From Escherichia coli (GTDB lineage: Bacteria; Pseudomonadota; Gammaproteobacteria; Enterobacterales; Enterobacteriaceae): 64,000 bases of DNA. Shown here in pieces: positions 3,160-59,942 of the stretch. The stretch lies in NCBI RefSeq assembly GCF_016026235.1, contig NZ_CP065613.1; one strand, 5' to 3'. The notes beneath the pieces were generated by a model. It had not been told where the DNA came from, searched no databases, and worked only from the letters and a program-made list of their open reading frames with translations. How positions within the stretch are numbered: position 1 is the first letter of the stretch; each line of letters begins with the position of its first letter. The translations under genes and the position numbers were made by a program.

Positions 3160-4110
3160 TTATCGCAGCTTATCGATATCAATTGCCTGAATAGCCCTTG
3201 CAATATCAGGGGAATTATTCAACACCCGAACATGCTGAAATAATTCTGTTGCTTCATCGTATTCTTTACGCAAATAACTCAACCACTGTTTAATCCGCGC
3301 TACGTGATATAACCCGGTATCGCCCTGCTTTTCCAGACGGGTATATTTTTGCAGCAAAGCAACCACCTCCGGCCACGGCATTCGCGGTTCGTTATATTTT
3401 ACTACCCGGCTCAGGTTGGGAATATTGAGCGCCCCGCGACCAATCATCACTGCGTCGCAGCCGCTGATCGCCATGCATTGTTGCGCGCTCTGCCAGTCCC
3501 AGATTTCGCCGTTGGCAATCACCGGAATATTCAGCCGCTGGCGAATCTCGCCAATCGCCTGCCAGTCAATATGCTCCGCGCGGTAACCCTGCTCTTTTGT
3601 CCGTCCATGCACCACCAGCTCCGTAGCACCAGCCTGTTGAACCGCATCGGCGATTTCAAATTTCTTCTCACCGCTGTCCCAGCCCAGACGCACTTTCACG
3701 CTGACGGGCAAATGCGCCGGTACAGCTTCACGCATCGCTTTTGCACCCTGGTAGATGAGTTCAGGATCTTTGAGTAACGTTGCCCCACCACCGCTGCCGT
3801 TGACCGTTTTCGACGGGCAGCCGCAATTGAGATCCACGCCCCAGGAACCTAATTCCACCGCACGGGCGGCGTTCTCTGCCAGCCATTGTGGGAACTGACC
3901 CAACAACTGCACGCGCACCAGCGTACCGGATGGTGTCCGGCTGGCGTTTTGTAGCTCAGGGCAAATGCGATGAAAAACTTTTACCGGCAGCAGTTGATCC
4001 ACCACGCGGACAAACTCGGTGATGCACAGATCGTAGTCGTTAACTTCGGTCAGCAATTCACGCACCAGAGAGTCAAGCACACCCTCCATCGGAGCCAGTA
4101 ACACACGCAT
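3160..4110 (-). CDS. dusC: tRNA-dihydrouridine synthase C
   Basis: ORF 3160..4176; conserved start [13 protein letters not shown] at ATG 4110; Dus-family TIM-barrel sequence. Confidence 0.9.
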
Positions 4111-11501: not shown

Positions 11502-13022
11502 TTAAAGGTGCAAAGACGCAAGACGCAGAATTTCGTTTTGCGTTGTTGTTTTTGTATCGACAATTCCGGAAACGAGACCGTTGCTCATGACCAGAATACG
11601 GTCTGTTATCCCTAACAACTCAGGCATTTCAGAGGAGATAATAATAATCCCTTTGCCTTTCTTCGCCAGTTCGGCAATTAACTGATAGATCTCAAACTTC
11701 GCCCCGACATCAATACCGCGCGTCGGTTCATCGAGCATTAATATTTCCGGTTGCGTTAGTAGCCAGCGACCAATAATCACCTTTTGCTGATTACCACCGG
11801 AGAGCGAACCAATTTGCGTCCGATGACCCGGCGTTTTTACCCGCATCGAATCAATCACCCACTGGGTATCGCTTTTCATCCGCGAGTTATCCAGTAAACC
11901 AACTTTATTTTTGTAGTTGCGAATATTGGAAATTAACGAGTTAAAACCGATATCCAGATAGGCATAAATTCCCGTTGAGCGGCGCTCCTCAGTTACCAGA
12001 GCAAATCCGTGGTTTATGGCTTCATTGGCATTATGGTTATTGATCTTTTTGCCGTGCAACGTAATGGTGCCAGCCGATTTCTCGCGAATACCAAATAACG
12101 TCTCAACAATATCGGTACGTTTCGCCCCCACCAGCCCGGCAATACCGAGGATCTCCCCTTTATGCAGATCAAACGAGACATCACGGATCGACGGCTGGCG
12201 CAGTGACGTCAGGTTACGCACCTCGAGGATGACTTCGCCCGGCTTGTTTTCTTTGTCAGGAAAACGCTGGTTAAGAGAACGCCCAACCATCATGGCGATA
12301 ATCTTGTCCATCGTCAGCCCTGCCAGCGGTTCGGTGGCGATCCACTGACCGTCGCGCAATACGGTAACTTCATCACATAACTGGAAGATTTCTTCCATTT
12401 TATGCGAGATATAAACAATACCGCAGCCGCGCTCTTTTAATTTACGAATAATAGTGAACAGATGATTGACCTCTTTTTCGGTTAACGAAGAAGTCGGTTC
12501 ATCCATAATCACAATTTTCGCGTTATAGGAAAACGCTTTGGCGATTTCGATCATCTGCATTTGCGAAACAGATAATGTGCCGACGCGCGCACGCGGATCG
12601 ATATCAATATCCAGTTCATCAAAAATCGCTTTGGTTTCGCGGTACATTTTGTCCTGATCGACAAACATGCCTTTGGTGGGGTATCGCCCAAGCCACATGT
12701 TGTCCATCACCGAACGTTGTAATACCAGGTTTAACTCCTGGTGTACCATCGAAATACCATTTTCCAGTGCTTCTTTGGCCGAATGGAAATCGATCTCTTT
12801 ACCCTGGAATAAAATGGTGCCGGAGTCTTTTTGATAAATACCAAACAAGCATTTTAATAATGTTGATTTTCCTGCGCCGTTTTCCCCCATTAATGCATGG
12901 ATAGAATGTGGCCGGACTTTTAAATTAACGTTATCAAGTGCCTTAACACCAGGAAAGGACTTGTTGATACCACTCATTTCCAACAAGTATTCCCCGGAGG
13001 ACGGAGTCGTTGAGCTGACCAT
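11502..13022 (-). CDS. mglA: Galactose/methyl-galactoside ABC transporter ATP-binding protein (tandem ABC domains)
   Basis: 506-aa ORF with Walker [10 protein letters not shown] and a second ABC domain. Confidence 0.95.
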
Positions 13023-13051
13023 ATAATTTTACCTTGTTGGTCATACAATAA

Positions 13052-13074
13052 GGGCGCAGTAATAGACTGCGCCC
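13052..13074 (-). other. Intercistronic stem-loop between mglB and mglA
   Basis: gggcgcagt-aatag-actgcgccc, a 9-bp perfect stem in the 60-nt mglB-mglA spacer; a REP-like stabiliser is known at this position. Confidence 0.6.
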
Positions 13075-13082
13075 AATCAGTC

Positions 13083-14081
13083 TTATTTCTTGCTGAATTC
13101 AGCCAGGTTGTCTTTATCTACGCCAACATAAGGTACGCGGACCACTTTGTTGTCGATTTTCCAGTTGGTGCCATCAGCCGCACCTTTACCATCGGCCAGG
13201 TTTTTCGCCAGATCAAAGGTCGCTTTCGCCTGGTTGTTAGCATCGTTCAGTACGGTGCCCGCCAGTGCACCGGATTTCACCAGCGCCAGCGCTTCTGGCA
13301 GCGCATCGACGCCAAACACCGGAATGCTGGACTTGTTGTGTGCTTTCAGCGCTTCAACCGCGCCCATTGCCATCGCATCGTTGTTGGCGATAACCACTTC
13401 GATTTTGTTGGCGTTCGGGCCAGACAGCCAGGCGTCCATCTTATCTTTCGCCTGAGCGGTATCCCACATAGCGGTATCTAACTGTAACTGTTCAGTTTTA
13501 ATGCCTTTGTCGTTCAGCTCTTTAATCACGTAAGTGGTACGTGCTTCTGCATCCGGATGGCCCGGTTCACCTTTCAGCAGTACGAATTGAATCTGACCGT
13601 CTTTATTCAGATCCCAACCCTGATTCGCCGCCCAGTGTTTAGCAATCAAATCGCCTTGAATAATGCCGGACTCTTTGGAGTCAGTGCCAACGTAGTAGGC
13701 TTTGTCGTAGCTATCCAGCGCCTTACGAGACGGTTCTTTGTTAAAGAATACCACCGGCACATTTTGCCCACGCGCTTTCTCAATCACCGTACCCGCAGCT
13801 GCCGGGTCAACCAGGTTGATTGCCAGTGCCTTCACCCCTTTCGCCAGCAATACGTCGATCTGATCGTTCTGCTTGGACTGGTCATTCTGAGAATCATTCA
13901 TCAGCAGCTGAACATCTGGCGCGGCTTTCGCATCTTGCTCAATAGCCTTGCGCACTACAGACATAAAGTTATCGTCGTACTTATAGATTGTTACACCAAT
14001 GCGAGTATCAGCAGCGTGTGCAGCGGCACCGAATAACATGCTGGCCATCACAGCAGACAGGGTTAACACCTTCTTATTCAT
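13083..14081 (-). CDS. mglB: Periplasmic D-galactose/D-glucose-binding protein
   Basis: 332-aa ORF with signal peptide [23 protein letters not shown]. Confidence 0.95.
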
Positions 14082-14332
14082 GGTATCTCCGGTTTTTCTT
14101 ATGCAGGGTAGTGCTTGAGATAAATGCTCGGCGGGGCAGTAGAGTTAATGAAGTGTTACTGAACGCCGAAGCTCACTTTTTAAAATTCGTTCTTCCATGC
14201 CCGGTAACGCTCCAGAAAACGGCTTTAATTGTTGTTATGACGCTATTACCTCGGTGAAAGTGATTATTCACTGTTACATACGGGTTACAACGTTAAAACG
14301 GTGCAATCATAGCTATCACATTGTTAAGATAC

Positions 14333-14348
14333 TGTGAAATCACTCACA
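14333..14348. promoter_or_regulatory. CRP site of the mgl promoter (class II geometry)
   Basis: tgtga-aatcac-tcaca, a perfect CRP half-site pair; on the minus strand a TATGAT -10 lies about 30 nt downstream (plus 14306-14311). Confidence 0.6.
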
Positions 14349-14350
14349 GA

Positions 14351-14366
14351 TTGAAAGCGGTTACAT
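14351..14366. promoter_or_regulatory. GalR/GalS operator-like dyad adjacent to the CRP site
   Basis: Minus strand atgtaaccgctttcaa resembles gal operators (GTGTAAACGATTCCAC / ATGTAACCGCTACCAC); it overlaps the galS stop codon. Confidence 0.4.
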
Positions 14367-15401
14367 CGCCTGATTTGTTGAGTTAGTGATCGCTGCCGCA
14401 TTCTGGCGTGTTGCGACAGAATGGCGACGCACTAACGTCGGCATAAAACAGTGGCTGGCACGAGGATCAATATTGCCTGCTGCCCCCTGCAAGGCCAGTT
14501 CGGTGGCTAATTTCGCCATTGAAGCAATGGGATAACGCACGGTCGTTAATTGCGGGTCGGTGTAACGGGCGATGGGAATATCATCGAAACCGATGATTGA
14601 GAGATGTAACGGAATCGCAATGCCATTATCTTTTAATGCTGTCAGTGCGCCAGCAGCCATATTGTCGTTATAAGCAAATACAGCGGTAAGTTGTAGATTG
14701 CGCCCCAGCAGTTCAACCATCGCCGCCTCACCGCCCGGCATGTCCGGCGTACCAGTGCCAATCCAGCTTTCCGGCGGAATAATATCCTGCTCTTTCAACG
14801 CACTCATCCAGCCTGCTTTACGCATGGCGTCATCTTCAATGCCGTGGCTGGAAGAAAGATAACCAATACGTTGATGACCGTTATTCAGCAACATGCGCGT
14901 CGCCATTCGGGCACCGCTGAGATTATCCAGGCAAACGCAACGATGGGCGTACCCCGGCACAACGCGGTTGATTAACACCATACCGGGAATGTTATCCATA
15001 AATTGCGCCAGTTCATCGTCACTCAATGCTTTTGAGTGAACAATCAACGCATTACAACGCTGGCGAATTAACACCTCAATGGCGTGACGCTCTTTTTCCG
15101 CTTCATGATAGCTATTGCCGATTAGCACGTATTTCTGATGCTGCTGGGCGACCAGATCCACCGCTTTTACCAGCGCGCCGAAAAACGCATCAGAAACGTC
15201 CATCACCACCACGCCAATGGTGTCGCTAACCTGAGTTGCCAGCGCCTGGGCATTGGCGTTTGGCCGATAATCCAGCTCACTCACGGCTTTCATTACTGCT
15301 TCACGCGTGTCGGCACTGACCAGCGTGCTGTTATTGATCACCCGGGAAACCGTTGCCACAGAGACGCCAGCCTGACGCGCTACATCACGAATGGTGATCA
15401 T
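14361..15401 (-). CDS. galS: Galactose isorepressor GalS (LacI/GalR family)
   Basis: ORF 14361..15407; conserved start [21 protein letters not shown] (HTH) at ATG 15401. Confidence 0.95.
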
Positions 15402-15532
15402 ATTCACTACCTGTTAGTAAATGACTGCTTGCTGGCGGCTATTTTGTCAGCACTGAATACAGGACTTCGTGAATCGAGTCACAGCAATGGAAACGGTTAC
15501 AGCCGTTTTGTTAACGAATGTGATCCAGATCG

Positions 15533-16690
15533 TTATCTTGATGTTTTAGATATTGCCGTTCCGGCAGCACGCAAAGTTAACTGACGCCAGAGCCATTCCA
15601 CCGGCCCCTGGCGGAAGTAACGCAGCCAGATAACAGAGAAGAGGATATTCGCCAGCCATACCGGAATAACAAACGCCAGCAGCTCCAGGCGGTCAAAATG
15701 CATAAACAAACCGAGGTGGTAAAAAAGCATGGTACAAATCAGCGTTTGCAATAGATAGTTGGTCAGCGCCATCCGTCCGACGCAGGCGATCGCAAGCACC
15801 AGCTTAAAGCGGCTCAATTGCGGCCAGAAGCCATAAAACAGCGACGCATAGCCAATCGCCTGAAACGGCGCACTCAGTTCCCGCGGCATTTGAAGTAAGA
15901 AGGCACACCAGCGATACGCCCAGTCCAGCTGCCATTGCAGGGCGATGGCAGGAAGGTTAATGGTCACCCCAATCGCCACCAGCACAAAACCAGTACGACG
16001 ATAGTGACGTAAGCTGAACTGCCCTTTCAGCCAGCCGCTGCGCATCAGCGCCGCACCAATGAGCATCATCCCTGCCAGTTGCCAGCCATACTGTGCGCCC
16101 AGTGCCAGTAAACTGTTGCCAACACCATCGGCACGATTACTGATCGCTTCAACGCCGCCGTGAAGCTTCCAGTATTTTTCATACAAAATAGCCGATGCAT
16201 CCGGCGTCCAGGCGCGGCTGGTCTGGCTGTCGGAAATCAGCCCCAATAACAGCAAAACGCCAAGCCCCACCAGATAAAGCATGACGCCTGTATTAAACAG
16301 GCTTTTTACCGATGGCGCATCGCGCACCAGCCGCCAGCAGATTAAGCCCACCAGCCCGTAAGCCAGCAGAATATCGCCGTCCCAGAACAATAAACCGTGA
16401 ATAAAACCCAGCAAGACTAACAGCGTTAACCGCGACTGGATCCAGCGTCTGCCACGGGGCAGCAACATTTGCAGGCCCGCACCAAACAGCAGCGCAAAAA
16501 GCGTGAGGAATTTCACCTGGCCGATGAGATCGAGAAATGCCCAGGTCCATGCATCCTGCGGCGTAATAGCGCCGTACCAGGCGGGATTGAGATAAGCCGC
16601 CTTTGGTAGCCCAAAGGCGCTGATGTTTAATAGCAGGATCCCCAGAATGGCGACGCCGCGAACAAAATCGAGCGTTACGTTGCGCTCCAT
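15533..16690 (-). CDS. yeiB: YeiB, DUF418 inner-membrane protein
   Basis: 385-aa polytopic ORF MERNVTLDFVRGVAILGILLLNI... Confidence 0.9.
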   Translation of the reverse strand: MERNVTLDFVRGVAILGILLLNISAFGLPKAAYLNPAWYGAITPQDAWTWAFLDLIGQVKFLTLFALLFGAGLQMLLPRGRRWIQSRLTLLVLLGFIHGLLFWDGDILLAYGLVGLICWRLVRDAPSVKSLFNTGVMLYLVGLGVLLLLGLISDSQTSRAWTPDASAILYEKYWKLHGGVEAISNRADGVGNSLLALGAQYGWQLAGMMLIGAALMRSGWLKGQFSLRHYRRTGFVLVAIGVTINLPAIALQWQLDWAYRWCAFLLQMPRELSAPFQAIGYASLFYGFWPQLSRFKLVLAIACVGRMALTNYLLQTLICTMLFYHLGLFMHFDRLELLAFVIPVWLANILFSVIWLRYFRQGPVEWLWRQLTLRAAGTAISKTSR

Positions 16691-29742: not shown

Positions 29743-30993
29743 TTACGCCAGACCAATAAAGAACCCGGCAATGGTCGCGCTCATCAGGTTGGAAAGCGTT
29801 GCTGCTGCCAGCGCCCGTAAACCAAGCTGAGCGATTTCCGGTGCACGTTTTGGCGAAATAGCCGAAAATGCGCCAACGACAACACCGATAGAACCAAAGT
29901 TAGCAAAACCACAAAGCGCAAAGGAGATAATCGCAATGGTTTTCACTTCCAGCGTGCCGCCCGTTTGCAGGTATGGGGAGAAACTCAGGTAAGCGACGAA
30001 TTCGTTAATCGCCAGTTTCTGCCCAATCAGGCTACCCGCAAGGTTGGCATCACTCCAGTCCACACCCATGATCCACGCCAGCGGTGCCAGCACATAGCCA
30101 AAAATACTTTCCAGAGAAGCATTGGTAAAACCAAACCAACCGCCAATTCCGCCGATAATGCCATTAATCAGCGCAATAATTGCGACAAACGCCATTACCA
30201 CCGTCGCCACACCGGCGGCGATTTTCAACCCGGTCATCGCACCGCTCGCCGCCGCTTCGATAAAGCTTTTTGGCGGCGTTTCACTGAACGACAGATTTTC
30301 AAATGTGACCTGCGAAGGCTCGGTTGCCGGACTAAGAATACGTGCAAACAAAATACCGCCGGGGATCGCCATCAGCGATGCCGCCAACAGGTAGTCAATT
30401 GGTACGCCCATTCCGGCATAACCAATCATCATCGAACCCGCAATGGACGCCATCCCGCTACAAATTGCGGTAAACAACTCGTTGCGATTCATGCGATCGA
30501 TAAACGGTTTAACGATCGCCGGGATCTCATTTTGCCCGAGGAAAATAGTAGTAACCGCAACAAAAGATTCGATTTTGCTGATGTTGAGGGCTTTCTGGAA
30601 AATGCTGCCAAGGATGCGAATCAGCAGCCCCATCACGCCAATGTAGTACAGCAGACTGATGAGCGCAGTGACGAAGATAATCGCCGGGAGTACGCGAAAG
30701 GCGAAGATAAAGCCTGCGCCATCAAACAGGACATCCATTTTCGGCCCAACCAGCGAACCAAAAATGAAGGCGCTACCGGCATCACTGTAAGACATCACTT
30801 TATGAACACCTAATGCCGCCTGTTCTACTGCCCATTTTCCCGGCGGAAAATAGAGCATGATGCCACCAATAGCGATTTGCAGCAGCAGTGCGGCTCCAAC
30901 CGTGCGCAAACTGATGCTCTTTTTATTTACCGACAACAGAAATGCTATTGCCAGTAACACCACCATCCCCACAACACTTCTCATTATATCCAT
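29743..30993 (-). CDS. psuT: Putative pseudouridine transporter (CNT family)
   Basis: 416-aa ORF; paralog of nupX. Confidence 0.9.
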   Translation of the reverse strand: MDIMRSVVGMVVLLAIAFLLSVNKKSISLRTVGAALLLQIAIGGIMLYFPPGKWAVEQAALGVHKVMSYSDAGSAFIFGSLVGPKMDVLFDGAGFIFAFRVLPAIIFVTALISLLYYIGVMGLLIRILGSIFQKALNISKIESFVAVTTIFLGQNEIPAIVKPFIDRMNRNELFTAICSGMASIAGSMMIGYAGMGVPIDYLLAASLMAIPGGILFARILSPATEPSQVTFENLSFSETPPKSFIEAAASGAMTGLKIAAGVATVVMAFVAIIALINGIIGGIGGWFGFTNASLESIFGYVLAPLAWIMGVDWSDANLAGSLIGQKLAINEFVAYLSFSPYLQTGGTLEVKTIAIISFALCGFANFGSIGVVVGAFSAISPKRAPEIAQLGLRALAAATLSNLMSATIAGFFIGLA

Positions 30994-31086
30994 AATGATT
31001 TTCCCTTCATGCCAGTAAACCCGGCGTCAGCGCCAGGTTTCGGTATGTATGATCAGTACGGGCGACGGCTTTCTGCCCGTCAGAAA

Positions 31087-32021
31087 TTAACCCGCGAGAC
31101 GCTGATATTCTTTGGCAATTTCGCTCGCCAGAATGGCGTTGTTGAACACCAGCTGGATGTTGGATTTCAGGCTGTCACCGCCGGTCAGCTCAGCAACGCG
31201 CGCCAGCAGGAATGGCGTACTTTCTTTACCAATAACACCCTGCGCTTCAGCTTCAGCTACCGCCTGATCGCCGCATTGATAGTGTGTTCCGGCATAGCAA
31301 ACTGTTCCGGGATCGGGTTCGCTACCACGAGGCCACCGTTCAGCCCGCTTTGCCATTTCACCGCCATTGCACGGGCAATTTCGCTGGCGCTGTCGAGACG
31401 AATGCTGACGTCAAACGGGCTGGTACGGCAGAAAAACGCAGGCAGCGCTTTAGTCTGATAGCCAATTAACGGCACACCGAAGGTTTCTAAATACTCAGTG
31501 GTTAATCCTAAATCGAGAATAGATTTCGCCCCGGCACAAACAACGGTGACATTAGTATTTGCCAGTTCTTGCAAATCGGCAGAAATATCGAAGGTATGTT
31601 CCGCCCCGCGATGAACACCACCAATTCCCCCGGTGGCAAATACTTTAATTCCGGCAAGCGCCGCAATAATCATCGTTGAAGCCACAGTGGTTGCGCCATT
31701 TTTTCCGGCGGCAACAACAAAAGGTAAATCGCGACGACTAACTTTGGTCACGTTATGCCCTTCACGACCCAGTAATTCAATTTCTTCTTTGCTTAAACCC
31801 ACTTTCATCACGCCACCAATAATGGCGATAGTGGCAGGTACTGCGCCCTGTTTACGAATAGTTTCTTCAACTTCAATTGCGGTCTGGGCATTTTGTGGGA
31901 ACGGCATCCCGTGAGAAATAATGGTCGATTCCAGCGCCACAACCGGTTTTTTGTTTTTTAAAGCGTCCTGCACTTCCGGGGAAATTTGTAATAATTCAGG
32001 GGAAATTTTTAATTCAGACAT
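31087..32021 (-). pseudogene. psuG: Pseudouridine-5'-phosphate glycosidase with a disrupted reading frame
   Basis: N-terminal 252 residues in ORF 31257..32021 (ends ...PEHTINAAIRR*); conserved C-terminal 60 residues DQAVAEAEAQG...EYQRLAG are in another frame (ORF 31087..31356). Frames meet at plus 31261-31274 cgcctgatcgccgc. Confidence 0.75.
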
Positions 32022-32950
32022 TCTGCGTTCTCCACTAACGATATAACGTTGGCAATCGATAAATCGGGGTTATTGGTGTATTCACAGGAGAGCGCCATTG
32101 ACGAACATCCCTGTGCGAAACGAACAGATTCGGCAAACGGCATTCCGTCTACCCAACACGAAGCAAGTCCCGCCATCATGGCATCGCCCGCTCCGGTAAC
32201 ATTAATAACATTGGTTTTGATCGAGGCAGACCAGCCACTTTCACCGCTGATTTCACTGTAATAAACGCCATCGCCGCCCATGCTCAATACCAATCGGTTC
32301 AGGCCATGTTGATGGAACCAGGCAGCAACTTTTGCCACATCTTCACGCCCTGACAGCGCAATCCCACTCAGTGTTTCCGCTTCAAGGCGGTTTGGCTTGA
32401 GAGTATGGATTTGACTTAATCGCTCGCGTACTTTGACGCATTTCCACGCGGAAACCGGATCGACAAATACGGGTACGTTGGCAGCATTATCCAGAATCCA
32501 TGCCAGTGCCTCTTCACTGATATTACAGTCCGCGACAATGACCTTTGCCCTCTGAATAAATTCACGGTGCTGTGCGAGATATTCAGCTGTAATAGCGTTG
32601 CTAATATTCATGTCATTTATAGCAACCAGCATTTCACCAGTATTATCGAGTAATGATAAATAGCTCGACGTATTTTCTCCCGGCACAATCAGGCATTTAT
32701 CGACATAAACGCCAGATTGATTGGTTTGCGTTAGCAGCGATTGGCCATAAAAATCACTGCCTACGGCGCTCAGTAGCCAGGCTTTATTACCCAGCAACGC
32801 CAGGTTTTGTGCAATATTGCGCCCTACCCCACCAGGCGTAAATTTTATTTTACCTGGATTTGAATCCGCATAATTTAATGATTCATGTGAATATCCGGCG
32901 ACATCAATATTCGCCGAGCCTATAATTACGACATAATCCTTTTCGCGCAT
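32009..32950 (-). CDS. psuK: Pseudouridine kinase (PfkB family)
   Basis: 313-aa ORF MREKDYVVIIGSANIDVAGY... with GGVGRNIA motif; overlaps the psuG start by 13 nt. Confidence 0.9.
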   Translation of the reverse strand: MREKDYVVIIGSANIDVAGYSHESLNYADSNPGKIKFTPGGVGRNIAQNLALLGNKAWLLSAVGSDFYGQSLLTQTNQSGVYVDKCLIVPGENTSSYLSLLDNTGEMLVAINDMNISNAITAEYLAQHREFIQRAKVIVADCNISEEALAWILDNAANVPVFVDPVSAWKCVKVRERLSQIHTLKPNRLEAETLSGIALSGREDVAKVAAWFHQHGLNRLVLSMGGDGVYYSEISGESGWSASIKTNVINVTGAGDAMMAGLASCWVDGMPFAESVRFAQGCSSMALSCEYTNNPDLSIANVISLVENAECLN

Positions 32951-37252: not shown

Positions 37253-37517
37253 AAAGCATAATACTTCTGTTTCAGCACGCAAGGAAAGCCGTAAAGTTAT
37301 GAGCAAAAGTTTGATGTGCTGCACAATTTTTTGTCATTTTTCCGAATTGCTGATGGGAAAATCCGTTATCAGCAATTTCATTTCAGCAGCGTCAGCAGCC
37401 AATCAGCAACAGTGAAATAGCATTTTGATTATTCGTGGCGCTTTTGATTTCGCTGTCTGTTTATTTTCTGACAAGCAGCGTAAACTCCGCGTCTTCCTCT
37501 TCCAGTGATCGACCAGC

Positions 37518-38699
37518 ATGCATAACTCCCCCGCAGTCTCCAGCGCGAAATCGTTTGACCTGACCTCGACGGCGTTTTTAATCGTTGCCTTTCTCACCGG
37601 TATTGCGGGCGCTCTGCAAACCCCGACACTCAGTATTTTTCTTACCGATGAAGTACATGCCCGTCCGGCGATGGTGGGATTCTTCTTTACCGGCAGCGCT
37701 GTCATTGGGATTCTGGTGAGTCAGTTTCTCGCCGGGCGCTCTGATAAGCGCGGCGATCGCAAATCGCTGATTGTCTTTTGCTGCCTGTTAGGCGTGCTGG
37801 CCTGCACCCTTTTTGCCTGGAATCGCAACTACTTTGTTTTGCTATTCGTTGGCGTCTTTCTTAGCAGCTTTGGCTCGACCGCTAACCCGCAAATGTTTGC
37901 CCTTGCCCGTGAACATGCCGACAAAACCGGACGTGAGGCGGTGATGTTCAGCTCTTTTTTACGCGCTCAGGTTTCACTGGCATGGGTCATTGGCCCACCG
38001 CTGGCTTATGCCTTAGCGATGGGTTTCAGCTTTACGGTAATGTATCTGAGCGCAGCGGTAGCATTTATTGTTTGCGGCGTGATGGTGTGGCTGTTTTTAC
38101 CGTCGATGCAAAAAGAGCTTCCGCTGGCGACCGGCACGGTTGAAGCGCCGCGCCGTAACCGTCGCGATACGCTGCTGCTGTTTGTCATTTGTACATTGAT
38201 GTGGGGCTCGAACAGCCTGTACATCATCAACATGCCGCTATTTATTATCAACGAACTGCATCTTCCCGAGAAACTGGCCGGTGTGATGATGGGGACCGCC
38301 GCCGGGCTGGAAATCCCGACCATGTTGATTGCCGGATATTTTGCCAAACGTCTGGGTAAGCGTTTCTTAATGCGCGTTGCTGCCGTGGGTGGCGTCTGTT
38401 TTTACGCAGGAATGCTGATGGCGCATTCACCTGCCATTCTGTTGGGCTTGCAGCTGCTAAATGCTATTTTTATTGGCATTCTGGGCGGTATCGGGATGCT
38501 CTATTTTCAGGATCTGATGCCCGGTCAGGCAGGTTCAGCCACCACGCTCTATACCAACACGTCGCGCGTGGGCTGGATCATCGCAGGATCAGTGGCGGGC
38601 ATCGTCGCCGAGATCTGGAATTATCACGCTGTGTTCTGGTTTGCGATGGTGATGATTATCGCCACTCTGTTTTGCTTACTGCGGATTAAAGATGTTTAA
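37518..38699 (+). CDS. setB: Sugar efflux transporter B (MFS)
   Basis: 393-aa 12-[30 protein letters not shown]... Confidence 0.9.
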
Positions 38700-38950
38700 G
38701 GCGCGGTCAGCATTTCCAGATCGATAAGCCAGGTCATTGCCTGCTGACGCGAGTTACCGCACATTTCAGCGCTGGCTTGTAAGCCTGCACAGACTTTCGG
38801 CCGCAGTGGCGAGGTGAAAATTTTACAGCGTTGCTGTTCATCAAGCTGAATGCAGGGCGTATTGGCGGGCTTGCCATCTGGCATACCGGGAATAGGGCTG
38901 GAAATTGAAGGGGCAGTGCAACACGCCCCGCAACCCGGACGGCATTCCAT
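38696..38950 (-). CDS. yeiW: YeiW, small cysteine-rich protein (UPF0153)
   Basis: ORF 38696..39082; conserved start [18 protein letters not shown] at ATG 38950; 84 aa; stop overlaps the setB stop. Confidence 0.8.
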
Positions 38951-39104
38951 ACGTTGTTCTCTTAAGGTTAACCACCGGATTGATGAGCGCGCACAGTACC
39001 ACCTTTTTTGCACCAGCAAAAGTGCGAATACCACTTGCCCGAAAGGCCCGTCGCGAGTACTTTGTCGCGATATTTTTGACATTTTCGACTACAGGAATTT
39101 TTCG

Positions 39105-39677
39105 ATGCCAAGAGCGAACGAAATTAAAAAAGGTATGGTACTGAATTACAACGGCAAACTGCTGCTGGTTAAGGACATTGATATTCAGTCGCCCACTGCC
39201 CGCGGTGCCGCTACGCTGTACAAAATGCGTTTTTCTGATGTCCGTACCGGGCTGAAAGTAGAAGAGCGTTTCAAAGGAGATGATATCGTTGACACCGTGA
39301 CGCTGACCCGCCGTTACGTTGACTTCTCCTATGTCGATGGCAACGAATATGTCTTTATGGATAAAGAAGACTATACCCCGTATACCTTCACCAAAGATCA
39401 GATTGAAGAAGAGTTGCTGTTTATGCCAGAGGGCGGCATGCCGGACATGCAGGTGCTGACCTGGGACGGTCAACTGCTGGCGCTTGAGCTGCCGCAGACC
39501 GTTGATCTGGAAATCGTTGAAACCGCACCAGGCATCAAAGGGGCATCTGCCAGCGCCCGTAACAAACCGGCGACATTGAGCACTGGTCTGGTGATTCAGG
39601 TACCAGAATACTTAAGCCCGGGCGAAAAAATTCGTATCCATATCGAAGAACGCCGTTATATGGGGCGTGCTGACTAA
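39105..39677 (+). CDS. yeiP: Elongation factor P-like protein
   Basis: ORF 38850..39677; conserved start [22 protein letters not shown] at ATG 39105; EF-P fold paralog (190 aa). Confidence 0.9.
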
Positions 39678-39696
39678 CTTCAGCCGCATGCAGAGA

Positions 39697-39723
39697 AGGG
39701 ATAGCTCAGGCTGTCCCTTTTTT
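39697..39723 (+). terminator. Rho-independent terminator of yeiP
   Basis: agggatagc-tcag-gctgtccct followed by a T6 run. Confidence 0.7.
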
Positions 39724-39899
39724 AATTTATTATACCAATCTTCTATTTTGCGCTTCCTGAACACCTTACGCCCGCAATATTCACTCGTTGATTGATCGCC
39801 CTCACACTTCATCGCATTAACAATCCAGACCAATTTCAATTGCTGTCATATAACTTTACACTGTCATTGTTAATTAATCGTTACTAAGACGTGACTCCT

Positions 39900-49954: not shown

Positions 49955-51544
49955 ATGACGCAAACTCTGTTAGCGATTGAAGATTTGTCGGTGGGTTTTC
50001 GCCATCAGCAAACCGTACGTACAGTAGTCAATGATGTTTCACTACAGATTGAGGCTGGCGAAACGCTGGCGCTGGTGGGTGAGTCAGGTTCAGGCAAAAG
50101 CGTTACCGCGCTGTCAATTTTACGCCTGCTCCCTTCCCCGCCGGTTGAATATCTCTCCGGCGATATTCGTTTTCATGGCGAATCGCTGCTTCATGCCAGC
50201 GACCAAACGTTGCGCGGTGTACGCGGTAATAAGATCGCCATGATTTTTCAAGAGCCGATGGTGTCGTTAAATCCATTGCATACCCTGGAAAAACAGCTTT
50301 ATGAAGTGCTTTCACTCCACCGCGGGATGCGTCGGGAAGCGGCTCGTGGCGAAATTCTTAACTGCCTTGATCGCGTTGGTATCCGCCAGGCGGCAAAACG
50401 GCTGACAGATTATCCGCATCAGCTCTCCGGCGGCGAACGCCAGCGGGTGATGATTGCGATGGCGCTGTTAACGCGACCGGAATTATTAATTGCCGATGAA
50501 CCGACCACCGCACTGGACGTCTCTGTCCAGGCGCAGATTTTACAGCTGTTGCGCGAACTGCAAGGCGAGTTGAATATGGGCATGCTGTTTATTACTCATA
50601 ACCTCAGCATTGTCAGAAAACTGGCCCACCGCGTGGCGGTAATGCAAAACGGTCGCTGTGTCGAGCAAAATTACGCCGCTACGCTATTTGCCTCACCCAC
50701 TCATCCTTACACACAAAAGCTACTCAACAGTGAACCGTCAGGCGATCCAGTGCCGTTGCCAGAACCTGCCTCAACGTTGCTGGATGTTGAACAGCTTCAG
50801 GTTGCCTTCCCCATTCGCAAAGGGATTTTGAAGCGCATTGTGGATCATAATGTGGTGGTGAAAAACATCAGTTTTACGCTACGAGCGGGTGAAACACTGG
50901 GTTTAGTGGGCGAGTCCGGTTCCGGGAAAAGCACGACGGGACTGGCGCTGCTGCGACTGATTAATTCTCAGGGCAGCATCATCTTTGACGGTCAGCCACT
51001 GCAAAATTTAAATCGCCGCCAGCTGTTACCTATTCGTCATCGCATTCAGGTGGTATTTCAGGATCCAAACTCCTCGCTCAACCCACGACTCAACGTTTTG
51101 CAGATTATTGAGGAAGGCTTACGGGTTCACCAGCCGACGCTTTCTGCCACACAACGCGAACAACAAGTGATAGCCGTGATGCATGAAGTGGGATTAGATC
51201 CTGAAACACGCCACCGTTATCCGGCGGAGTTCTCTGGTGGTCAGCGACAACGTATTGCGATTGCCAGGGCATTAATTCTTAAGCCCTCGCTGATCATACT
51301 TGATGAACCGACATCATCACTCGACAAAACGGTACAGGCGCAAATATTGACGCTATTGAAATCATTGCAACAAAAGCATCAACTGGCCTATTTGTTTATC
51401 AGCCATGATTTGCACGTTGTCCGCGCGTTATGTCATCAGGTTATCGTACTGCGACAAGGGGAAGTAGTGGAACAAGGACCGTGCGCGCGCGTGTTTGCCA
51501 CACCGCAGCAGGAGTATACGCGTCAGCTACTGGCGTTGAGCTGA
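49955..51544 (+). CDS. yejF: Peptide ABC transporter ATP-binding protein (two ABC domains)
   Basis: ORF 49907..51544; conserved start MTQTLLAIEDLSVGF at ATG 49955; two Walker A motifs GESGSGKS. Confidence 0.9.
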   Translation: MTQTLLAIEDLSVGFRHQQTVRTVVNDVSLQIEAGETLALVGESGSGKSVTALSILRLLPSPPVEYLSGDIRFHGESLLHASDQTLRGVRGNKIAMIFQEPMVSLNPLHTLEKQLYEVLSLHRGMRREAARGEILNCLDRVGIRQAAKRLTDYPHQLSGGERQRVMIAMALLTRPELLIADEPTTALDVSVQAQILQLLRELQGELNMGMLFITHNLSIVRKLAHRVAVMQNGRCVEQNYAATLFASPTHPYTQKLLNSEPSGDPVPLPEPASTLLDVEQLQVAFPIRKGILKRIVDHNVVVKNISFTLRAGETLGLVGESGSGKSTTGLALLRLINSQGSIIFDGQPLQNLNRRQLLPIRHRIQVVFQDPNSSLNPRLNVLQIIEEGLRVHQPTLSATQREQQVIAVMHEVGLDPETRHRYPAEFSGGQRQRIAIARALILKPSLIILDEPTSSLDKTVQAQILTLLKSLQQKHQLAYLFISHDLHVVRALCHQVIVLRQGEVVEQGPCARVFATPQQEYTRQLLALS

Positions 51545-51547
51545 CGC

Positions 51548-51892
51548 TTAAAAAGGATTGTAGTTTGAAAAGGGTTCGGCAATTGCCACACCAAAATTTT
51601 TCAATCGGCATGTTGCAGCAAACTCGTCCTGGCGATTTACAAACAGGCACGGCTCACCTTCACACTCCAGCACCGAACATGGAACTTCGATGTCGCTTAA
51701 CGCCTGGCTTAGTTTATACATCACCGACCATGCATTATCACCATCCGGGCTAAGCAATTTAAGCGCCACCAGGCTGTTGTCACCGCACGGTCCATTTTGC
51801 GGAATCGGTTCAACCTTCGAACCTGCGAAACCAGCAGACCAGCGATAGTTCTGCGGCAGTCGATGGACGATTGAGAGTTGTAATGAAGTCAC
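51548..51892 (-). CDS. yejG: YejG, uncharacterised 114-aa protein
   Basis: [21 protein letters not shown]... (GTG start); convergent with yejF, stops 3 nt apart. Confidence 0.85.
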
Positions 51893-52190
51893 TTATTTTC
51901 CCCGGAAGCACATTCACCTCACAATTTGTTTACATCAATTTTAACACATCATCAACAATCCGTCTTTATACAGATCGTAAAGATTGATGCCTCGCCTGCG
52001 TGGCCTCTATGGCTCTGATTTAAGTAATATCTGCGGGCGTGGTCACGTTTGCGGGGCTATATGTACCCGTTTCTGCGATCTAACTCAACCTTTTTAACTA
52101 CAATGATGTGACTTTTTACATAAATTGATTTTACATAAAATAAACATATATCGGGGGAATGATAGATTTGTGGTTGACATGCATCAACAA

Positions 52191-52210
52191 AGGAAGCCTT
52201 TTAGCTTCCT
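52191..52210 (-). terminator. Possible terminator hairpin after bcr
   Basis: aggaagc-ctttta-gcttcct; on the minus strand followed by a weak UUGUUG tract 15 nt past the bcr stop. Confidence 0.4.
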
Positions 52211-52224
52211 CGTTGTGCAATAGA

Positions 52225-56059: not shown

Positions 56060-56456
<397 letters not shown>

Positions 56457-59865: not shown

Positions 59866-59942
59866 CGGCACGTAGCGCAGCCTGGTAGCGCACCGTCATG
59901 GGGTGTCGGGGGTCGGAGGTTCAAATCCTCTCGTGCCGACCA
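59866..59942 (+). tRNA. proL: tRNA-Pro (anticodon GGG)
   Basis: 77-nt CGGCACGTAGCGCAGCCTGGTAGCGCACCGTCATGGGGTGTCGGGGGTCGGAGGTTCAAATCCTCTCGTGCCGACCA with cloverleaf-compatible stems, GGG anticodon and encoded CCA end. Confidence 0.9.

Follow-up and report, generated by a model that had tools for sequence, protein, structure and literature searches.

Convergent gene junctions at setB/yeiW and yejF/yejG of Escherichia coli: ordinary cases of compact packing, with antisense 3' overlap as a probable by-product

Introduction

When two convergent genes end so close together that their stop codons touch or overlap, where do their transcripts end, and does the antisense RNA that each makes over its neighbour couple the expression of the pair? 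The question arises twice in a 64,000-nucleotide stretch of an Escherichia coli genome (contig NZ_CP065613.1; the window hereafter), at the junction of setB with yeiW and at that of yejF with yejG. An original prediction made from the sequence held that neither junction leaves room for terminators, that transcripts must therefore run into the opposing gene, and that the resulting antisense overlap could couple each pair.

Junctions of this kind are not rare. The tetranucleotides CTAA, TTAA, CTAG or TTAG let stop codons on opposite strands overlap, which has been known since 2007 to cause the peak of 4-nt convergent overlaps, and E. coli was counted to have 58 convergent overlaps, the terminators of which have to be embedded in coding sequence (Lillo & Krakauer, 2007, Biol Direct 2:22; PMC2174442); a 2026 preprint gives the number of convergent pairs as 704.

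Materials and methods

Positions are those of the window; at both junctions the MG1655 coordinate is the window coordinate plus 2,226,345. Annotation was taken from the RefSeq records of FDAARGOS_943, which is 100% identical over window positions 37400-39800 (2.4 kb), and of MG1655. Conservation was followed in 20-kb loci from 80 Enterobacteriaceae species, anchored on MepS, which is located between the two junctions. The frequency of tight junctions was estimated from 25 convergent CDS pairs, located in three 50-kb stretches elsewhere in MG1655. Transcript 3' ends came from supplementary Term-seq and bicyclomycin data of Adams et al. (2021; PMC7815308), which cover three growth conditions.

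Results and discussion

Geometry and frequency of the junctions

The stop codons of setB and yeiW overlap by 2 nt, as had been predicted, on the concurring evidence of the sequence, the open reading frame list and the RefSeq annotation of both the identical E. coli genome and MG1655. Sequence, open reading frame list and RefSeq annotation likewise agree that the yejF and yejG stops are 3 nt apart (Table 1). On the plus strand the yeiW stop reads TTA at 38696-38698 and the yejG stop TTA at 51548-51550; yejF stops with TGA (51542-51544), and yejG is annotated with a GTG start. The coding sequences of setB and yeiW thus share exactly 4 nt that contain both stops, a convergent stop-codon overlap of the YTAR class, and those of yejF and yejG do not overlap at all, their 3-nt gap making them a near-overlap outside the 4-nt class. 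Judging by Pfam matches and by the conservation of their C-termini across genera, all four are genuine genes.

Table 1. Coordinates of genes, junction elements and transcript-end signals in the window
Feature	Position	Strand	Evidence and remarks
setB CDS, MFS sugar efflux transporter	37518-38699	+	TAA stop 38697-38699; Pfam MFS_1
C-rich, G-poor stretch (C/G 1.3-1.7), antisense to setB 3' end	38556-38695	-	composition
TTAA tetramer common to setB and yeiW CDS	38696-38699	.	raw sequence
yeiW CDS, 84 aa, CxxCxxCC/YkgJ family	38696-38950	-	TAA stop read 38698->38696; Pfam CxxCxxCC
GC-rich hairpin GGGGCGTGTTGCACTGCCCC, yeiW codons 8-14, then TTCAATTT	38910-38929	-	Term-seq and consensus scan
yejF CDS, ABC ATPase of YejABEF peptide/microcin C importer	49955-51544	+	Pfam ABC_tran
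Rho termination region peak, antisense in yejF	50930 (MG1655 2277275)	-	PMC7815308
yejG mRNA 3' end	51340 (MG1655 2277685)	-	Term-seq (PMC7815308); 208 nt past yejG stop
Perfect 9-bp inverted repeat GCGTCAGCT-N10-AGCTGACGC	51520-51547	.	folds on both strands
yejF/yejG spacer CGC, 3 nt	51545-51547	.	sequence
yejG CDS, YejG family	51548-51892	-	TAA stop read 51550->51548; Pfam YejG
C-rich, G-poor tract (C/G 1.3-1.9, ~260 nt), yejF 3' extension antisense to yejG	51585-51845	+	
bcr terminator hairpin	52181-52222	+	Term-seq 3' end 52222 (MG1655 2278567)

Such layouts are common in the MG1655 sample. The convergent gaps there were 48, 199, -4, 47, -4, 136, 42 and -30 nt at 0.20-0.25 Mb, 233, 191, 35, -39, 231, 102 and -4 nt at 0.80-0.85 Mb, and 33, 43, 46, 0, 50, 161, -4, 39, 40 and 11 nt at 1.70-1.75 Mb. 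In seven of the 25 pairs the gap does not exceed 3 nt, and four (dkgB/yafC, yafS/rnhA, rlmF/ybiO and purR/punR) overlap by exactly 4 nt. With current annotation six of the 25 overlap, which makes overlaps commoner in this sample than 58 in about 700 pairs implies. Two tight junctions are about the number expected in a 64-kb window, and since about a quarter of convergent pairs share the layout, a tuned device in each case is unlikely. The TTAA of setB/yeiW is one of the four tetramers listed by Lillo and Krakauer and differs from their class in nothing essential; yejF/yejG is a variant with a 3-nt gap in place of the overlap. Both junctions are ordinary, ancient cases of the commonest kind of enterobacterial convergent junction, and their layout, catalogued before, is not new.

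YTAR tetramers, which permit the overlap of convergent stops, are also the target and duplication site of IS5. Insertion of IS5 at a YTAR junction, at 38696-38699 or elsewhere, would duplicate the tetramer and spare both reading frames, so that such junctions are putative safe landing sites.

Conservation across the Enterobacteriaceae

Of the 53 Enterobacteriaceae species with both genes, 46 keep the 4-nt overlap of setB and yeiW, which reads TTAA or TTAG; the A/G change turns the setB stop from TAA to TAG and is synonymous in yeiW (CCT to CCC, Pro). The exceptions include Klebsiella pneumoniae, with a 39-nt spacer, and four genera with 1.2-3.2 kb of inserted genes. At yejF/yejG, 65 of 75 species have a spacing of exactly 3 nt; in the others it is 1-15 nt, bar one apparent 241-nt gap (locus L041), which we put down to truncation of the yejF alignment. 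Within E. coli, the sequence of 81 nt around each junction is found in 4851 of 5426 complete genomes for setB/yeiW and in 5425 of 5426 for yejF/yejG, and window positions 37400-39800 are found in 5413 of the 5426.

The residues encoded at the junctions are themselves conserved: setB and yeiW end in ...IKDV and ...TAP, yejF and yejG in ...LALS and ...NPF. The conserved C-termini are enough to explain the fixed geometry of both junctions, which probably persists because both C-termini are under purifying selection and an indel at the junction would harm a gene. The strict conservation of the 3-nt spacer could reflect an additional function.

The setB-yeiW junction is also a site of recurrent insertion and rearrangement. 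Salmonella carries the horizontally acquired opvAB operon between the two genes (PMC12902445), and the 1.2-3.2 kb inserts at the junction differ among loci L049, L065, L071 and L076 (at about 1.9-4.6 kb of each locus). In the last of these, from Pluralibacter, a 3' fragment of yeiW still abuts setB, beside a second, diverged yeiW copy. A deletion crosses the junction in the clinical E. coli isolate EC18 (L086, NZ_CP060914.1, locus positions 3540-3646) and shortens setB by two codons; yeiW is left there as a 5' fragment pseudogene and is therefore dispensable.

Transcript ends around yejF/yejG

The curated Term-seq tables contain no 3' end at or just upstream of either junction (PMC7815308). 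That transcripts continue into the opposing gene, as predicted, follows from the geometry itself and is borne out by the listing of both pairs among genes with overlapping transcripts (PMC12288877, discussed below) and by the position of the yejG 3' end within yejF (PMC7815308). This end is strong, antisense to yejF, and has three entries in the supplementary table for the three growth conditions; the yejG 3' UTR overlaps the coding end of yejF by about 205 nt (PMC7815308). Upstream of it lies a modest hairpin (51346-51384, minus strand) followed by UAUUUGC. No consensus structure was found for this hairpin across 74 species and it is not conserved outside Escherichia, so that it is either specific to Escherichia or a processing stop. 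Further along the same strand, the Rho termination region has a Rho score of 3.76 and a significance of 2e-10, at a resolution of about +/-800 nt (PMC7815308).

In the other direction, the only plus-strand 3' end in the curated tables beyond yejF is that at 52222, after all of yejG has been crossed antisense. It falls at the bcr terminator hairpin, which is therefore used in both directions, and it is a possible end point of yejABEF read-through, which is one candidate source of this RNA. The tract antisense to yejG between yejF and this point has a composition that resembles a Rho loading site and may act as one.

A stem-loop built around the yejF stop codon

The perfect inverted repeat at the end of yejF is made of the codons T-R-Q-L and of the last Ser codon with the TGA stop and CGC spacer that follow it. 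Its predicted folding energies are -16.2 (plus strand) and -16.6 kcal/mol (minus strand), with z scores of -3.8 and -4.3, and it is the most stable 34-mer of the last 1.5 kb of E. coli yejF. The hairpin has no U-tract, being followed by UUAAAAAGG on the plus strand and by GUAUACUCC on the minus strand. An intrinsic terminator, that is a GC-rich hairpin followed by a U-tract, was sought at both junctions and found at neither, and Rfam has no known RNA family at either.

Across the 62 different sequences whose gap is 3 nt, pairing holds in 88% of the cells of the yejF-stop helix. The third base of the Thr codon and the third base of the spacer form GC in 36 sequences, AU in six, CG in six and GU or UG in three, and are unpaired in 11; the third bases of the Arg codon and of the stop form UA in 35 and CG in 11, and are unpaired in 16. 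None of 500 shuffles matched the covariation observed at these two pairs, in counts that ignore phylogeny. Spacer bases 1 and 2, the pairing partners of the invariant CG in the Arg codon, are about 90% conserved though non-coding. In Cedecea the 3' arm lies in a 10-nt spacer and is perfectly complementary to the same yejF codons. In 47% of species the folding energy of the hairpin lies below the 5th percentile. Enterobacter, Kosakonia and Atlantibacter have a weak hairpin here or none. Since RNAalifold gave no family-wide consensus structure at the yejF/yejG junction despite the 88% pairing, we call the hairpin only partly conserved.

The end of yejF has the architecture of a stable, U-less stem-loop immediately followed by a C-rich, G-poor tract, and resembles in this the ends of Rho-terminated mRNAs that, in a general model, are trimmed back to a protective U-less stem-loop (Dar & Sorek, 2018, NAR; PMC6061677). 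It differs from that class in that the stem-loop is built of coding sequence, stop codon and a 3-nt spacer that the opposing gene shares, and has no mapped 3' end: the curated Term-seq tables list none at the hairpin on either strand, in genes that are weakly expressed. This partly conserved stem-loop of a stop codon and a 3-nt spacer is the sole item here that is new, and only mildly so; it offers a small, testable case of an RNA structure formed from coding sequence, stop codon and spacer together.

Transcript ends around setB/yeiW

The dominant 3' end from the yeiW promoter lies inside the yeiW reading frame, at window position 38906 (MG1655 2265250/1), 44 nt after the ATG, in each of the three growth conditions; it scores 6.97 as an intrinsic terminator (threshold 3.0) and 1.36 for Rho, which is not significant (PMC7815308). 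Because most transcripts from this promoter end there, little yeiW transcription reaches setB under laboratory conditions. The hairpin at this end is strong only in Escherichia and some Citrobacter. Complementarity between the third bases of its Gly and Ala codons was seen in 19 of 51 cases against 12.6 expected, a weak signal only, since the protein motif (G-A...A-P codons) largely dictates the sequence of the arms. This internal 3' end sits in codons of the CxxCxxCC motif; Adams et al. (2021) list it in their supplements alone and do not discuss it there. The palindrome that forms it (38910-38929) also gives a hairpin on the plus strand, 211-230 nt past the setB stop.

For setB, which is weakly expressed, the curated Term-seq tables list no 3' end (PMC7815308). 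A conserved structure was sought at the junction with RNAalifold in 45 species, and the result was a 4-pair helix of -2.3 kcal/mol with zero covariation. One candidate junction structure in E. coli, CGCGGTCAGCA...TGCTGACGCG, was discarded since it is not conserved; terminator-like matches in the last 60 nt of setB (38643-38664) are upstream of the stop and weak, have no Term-seq support and were put down to chance. Any yeiW read-through RNA would contain, antisense to the setB 3' end, a C-rich stretch whose composition resembles that of a Rho loading site.

The original claim that there is no room for terminators thus holds only for intergenic space. It is misleading because determinants of 3' ends sit inside the coding sequences, namely the yejF-stop stem-loop, the Rho region in yejF and the hairpin within yeiW.

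Antisense overlap as a by-product of packing

We consider it probable that the antisense 3' overlap at both junctions is a generic by-product of compact packing, with no dedicated device behind it, and that Rho and embedded hairpins limit its extent. RNA polymerase would pass each junction into the opposing gene, and 3' ends would form there. For yejG, the steady-state end lies 208 nt into antisense yejF, with a bicyclomycin-sensitive, Rho-dependent region further downstream; as in the known suppression of antisense RNA by Rho, the termination region maps antisense within a gene. Most transcripts from the yeiW promoter halt at the intrinsic-terminator-like hairpin early in the reading frame. 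For the two remaining genes we infer the course of events, because neither has a matching 3' end in the tables and both operons are weakly expressed: yejF read-through would be terminated by Rho in antisense yejG and trimmed back to the stop-codon hairpin, and the setB transcript would run antisense through yeiW, perhaps as far as the palindrome and a C-rich tract beyond it.

Embedded hairpins occur at other tight junctions too. Strong hairpins lie just inside the opposing coding sequence at dkgB/yafC, purR/punR and rlmF/ybiO, that of dkgB/yafC being a canonical hairpin followed by U5. Hairpin energies at ten tight junctions were not generally exceptional against the genomic background, so hairpins at junctions are no universal rule. 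The two junctions illustrate how, in compact genomes, signals for 3' ends come to lie inside neighbouring genes and Rho limits the antisense RNA that results.

Could the overlap nevertheless serve as a regulatory device? In an excludon, 3' antisense overlap would bring about mutual repression, in that transcription of one gene interferes with that of the other and RNase III cuts the RNA duplex. On this view setB would fall when yeiW is induced, as by vanillin, and yejABEF would fall when yejG is expressed. Both pairs consist of adjacent, opposed genes with overlapping transcripts according to the literature (PMC12288877; PMC7815308), and both stand among the 165 convergent MG1655 excludons found with ExcludonFinder, with overlap called in 50% or more of the 58 RNA-seq data sets (NAR 2025, Table 1; PMC12288877). 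As a class these pairs are over-represented in dsRNA captured with p19, and their members are co-expressed more rarely in single cells; for 146 of the 165 the predicted terminators lie inside the neighbour's transcription unit (PMC12288877). The overlap of the yejG 3' UTR with the coding end of yejF, the yeiW promoter, which is inducible 4.3-fold by vanillin, and the conservation of the geometry across genera would all fit such coupling. However, the evidence for the mutually exclusive expression that defines excludons is at the level of the class and not of setB/yeiW or yejF/yejG; the conserved geometry is accounted for by the conserved protein C-termini; and the early end of most yeiW-promoter transcripts, like the action of Rho on the antisense RNA in yejF, speaks against coupling. 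In our sample, the list of excludons contains all eight pairs whose gap is at most 11 nt and not one of the 17 whose gap is at least 31 nt. The listing thus tracks the proximity of the coding sequences exactly and adds little beyond geometry, and membership mostly restates proximity together with detectable expression. We therefore regard excludon coupling as unlikely at these junctions.

Still less probable is a combined reading in which the yejF-stop stem-loop is a selected, bidirectional insulator or 3'-end element that has held the yejF/yejG spacing constant throughout the Enterobacteriaceae, and the terminator in yeiW a regulated gate. Efficient translation of yeiW, or stress such as vanillin, may open this gate and so set the entry of antisense RNA into setB. 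Were this so, both junctions would be conditional excludons and not passive packing, and cis-antisense control would link a sugar efflux pump with a stress-induced metal-binding protein, and a peptide/microcin importer with YejG; even then, conditional excludons would add one more case to a mechanism already known.

Overlapping bidirectional terminators between convergent genes were reportedly described by Ju, Li and Liu in 2019 with SEnd-seq. In a collision model of such terminators (Wang et al., preprint, 2022; 10.1101/2022.10.23.513370), applied here, the yejF/yejG stem-loop would pause both polymerases, and head-on and trailing collisions would release them. The position of the perfect repeat exactly at the junction, its folding on both strands, its lack of a U-tract, its covariation and the relocated 3' arm of Cedecea are what such a model would lead one to expect, and yejF/yejG shares with the SEnd-seq class a U-less hairpin where convergent units meet; setB/yeiW, with no conserved hairpin, does not. 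Against it, paired, Rho-independent 3' ends flanking the stem-loop are absent from the curated Term-seq tables, a comparison limited by low expression; the abundant yejG 3' end lies 208 nt past the hairpin, so that minus-strand polymerases pass through it, and Rho dependence is seen downstream; and in the model the efficiency of termination rises with expression, whereas these genes are weakly expressed (10.1101/2022.10.23.513370). We find this reading about as doubtful as the combined one.

That one stop per pair has been mis-called, the true genes ending earlier and leaving an intergenic gap, would fit the small size and poor characterisation of yeiW and yejG and the GTG start of the latter, but can be rejected with near certainty, as the reading frame fixes the position of a stop codon, full-length alignments reach the last residue with an identical stop position in 46 to 65 species, Pfam domains span the proteins, and RefSeq PGAP and the curated MG1655 record concur.

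Other observations in the window

A very abundant orphan Term-seq 3' end lies at about 37194 on the minus strand (MG1655 2263539), 44 nt upstream of the fruB start (37150). It follows a hairpin and seven consecutive T in the leader of fruBKA, which suggests an attenuator or a leader-derived small RNA. At about 30170-32950 (12773-15551 of locus L001), an IS5-family element interrupts psuG in this strain, and psuK has an internal stop; both are pseudogenes relative to MG1655. Rfam matches identify the L25 ribosomal protein leader upstream of rplY (56125-56150) and a tRNA, annotated as proL (tRNA-Pro) in MG1655, at 59866-59939.
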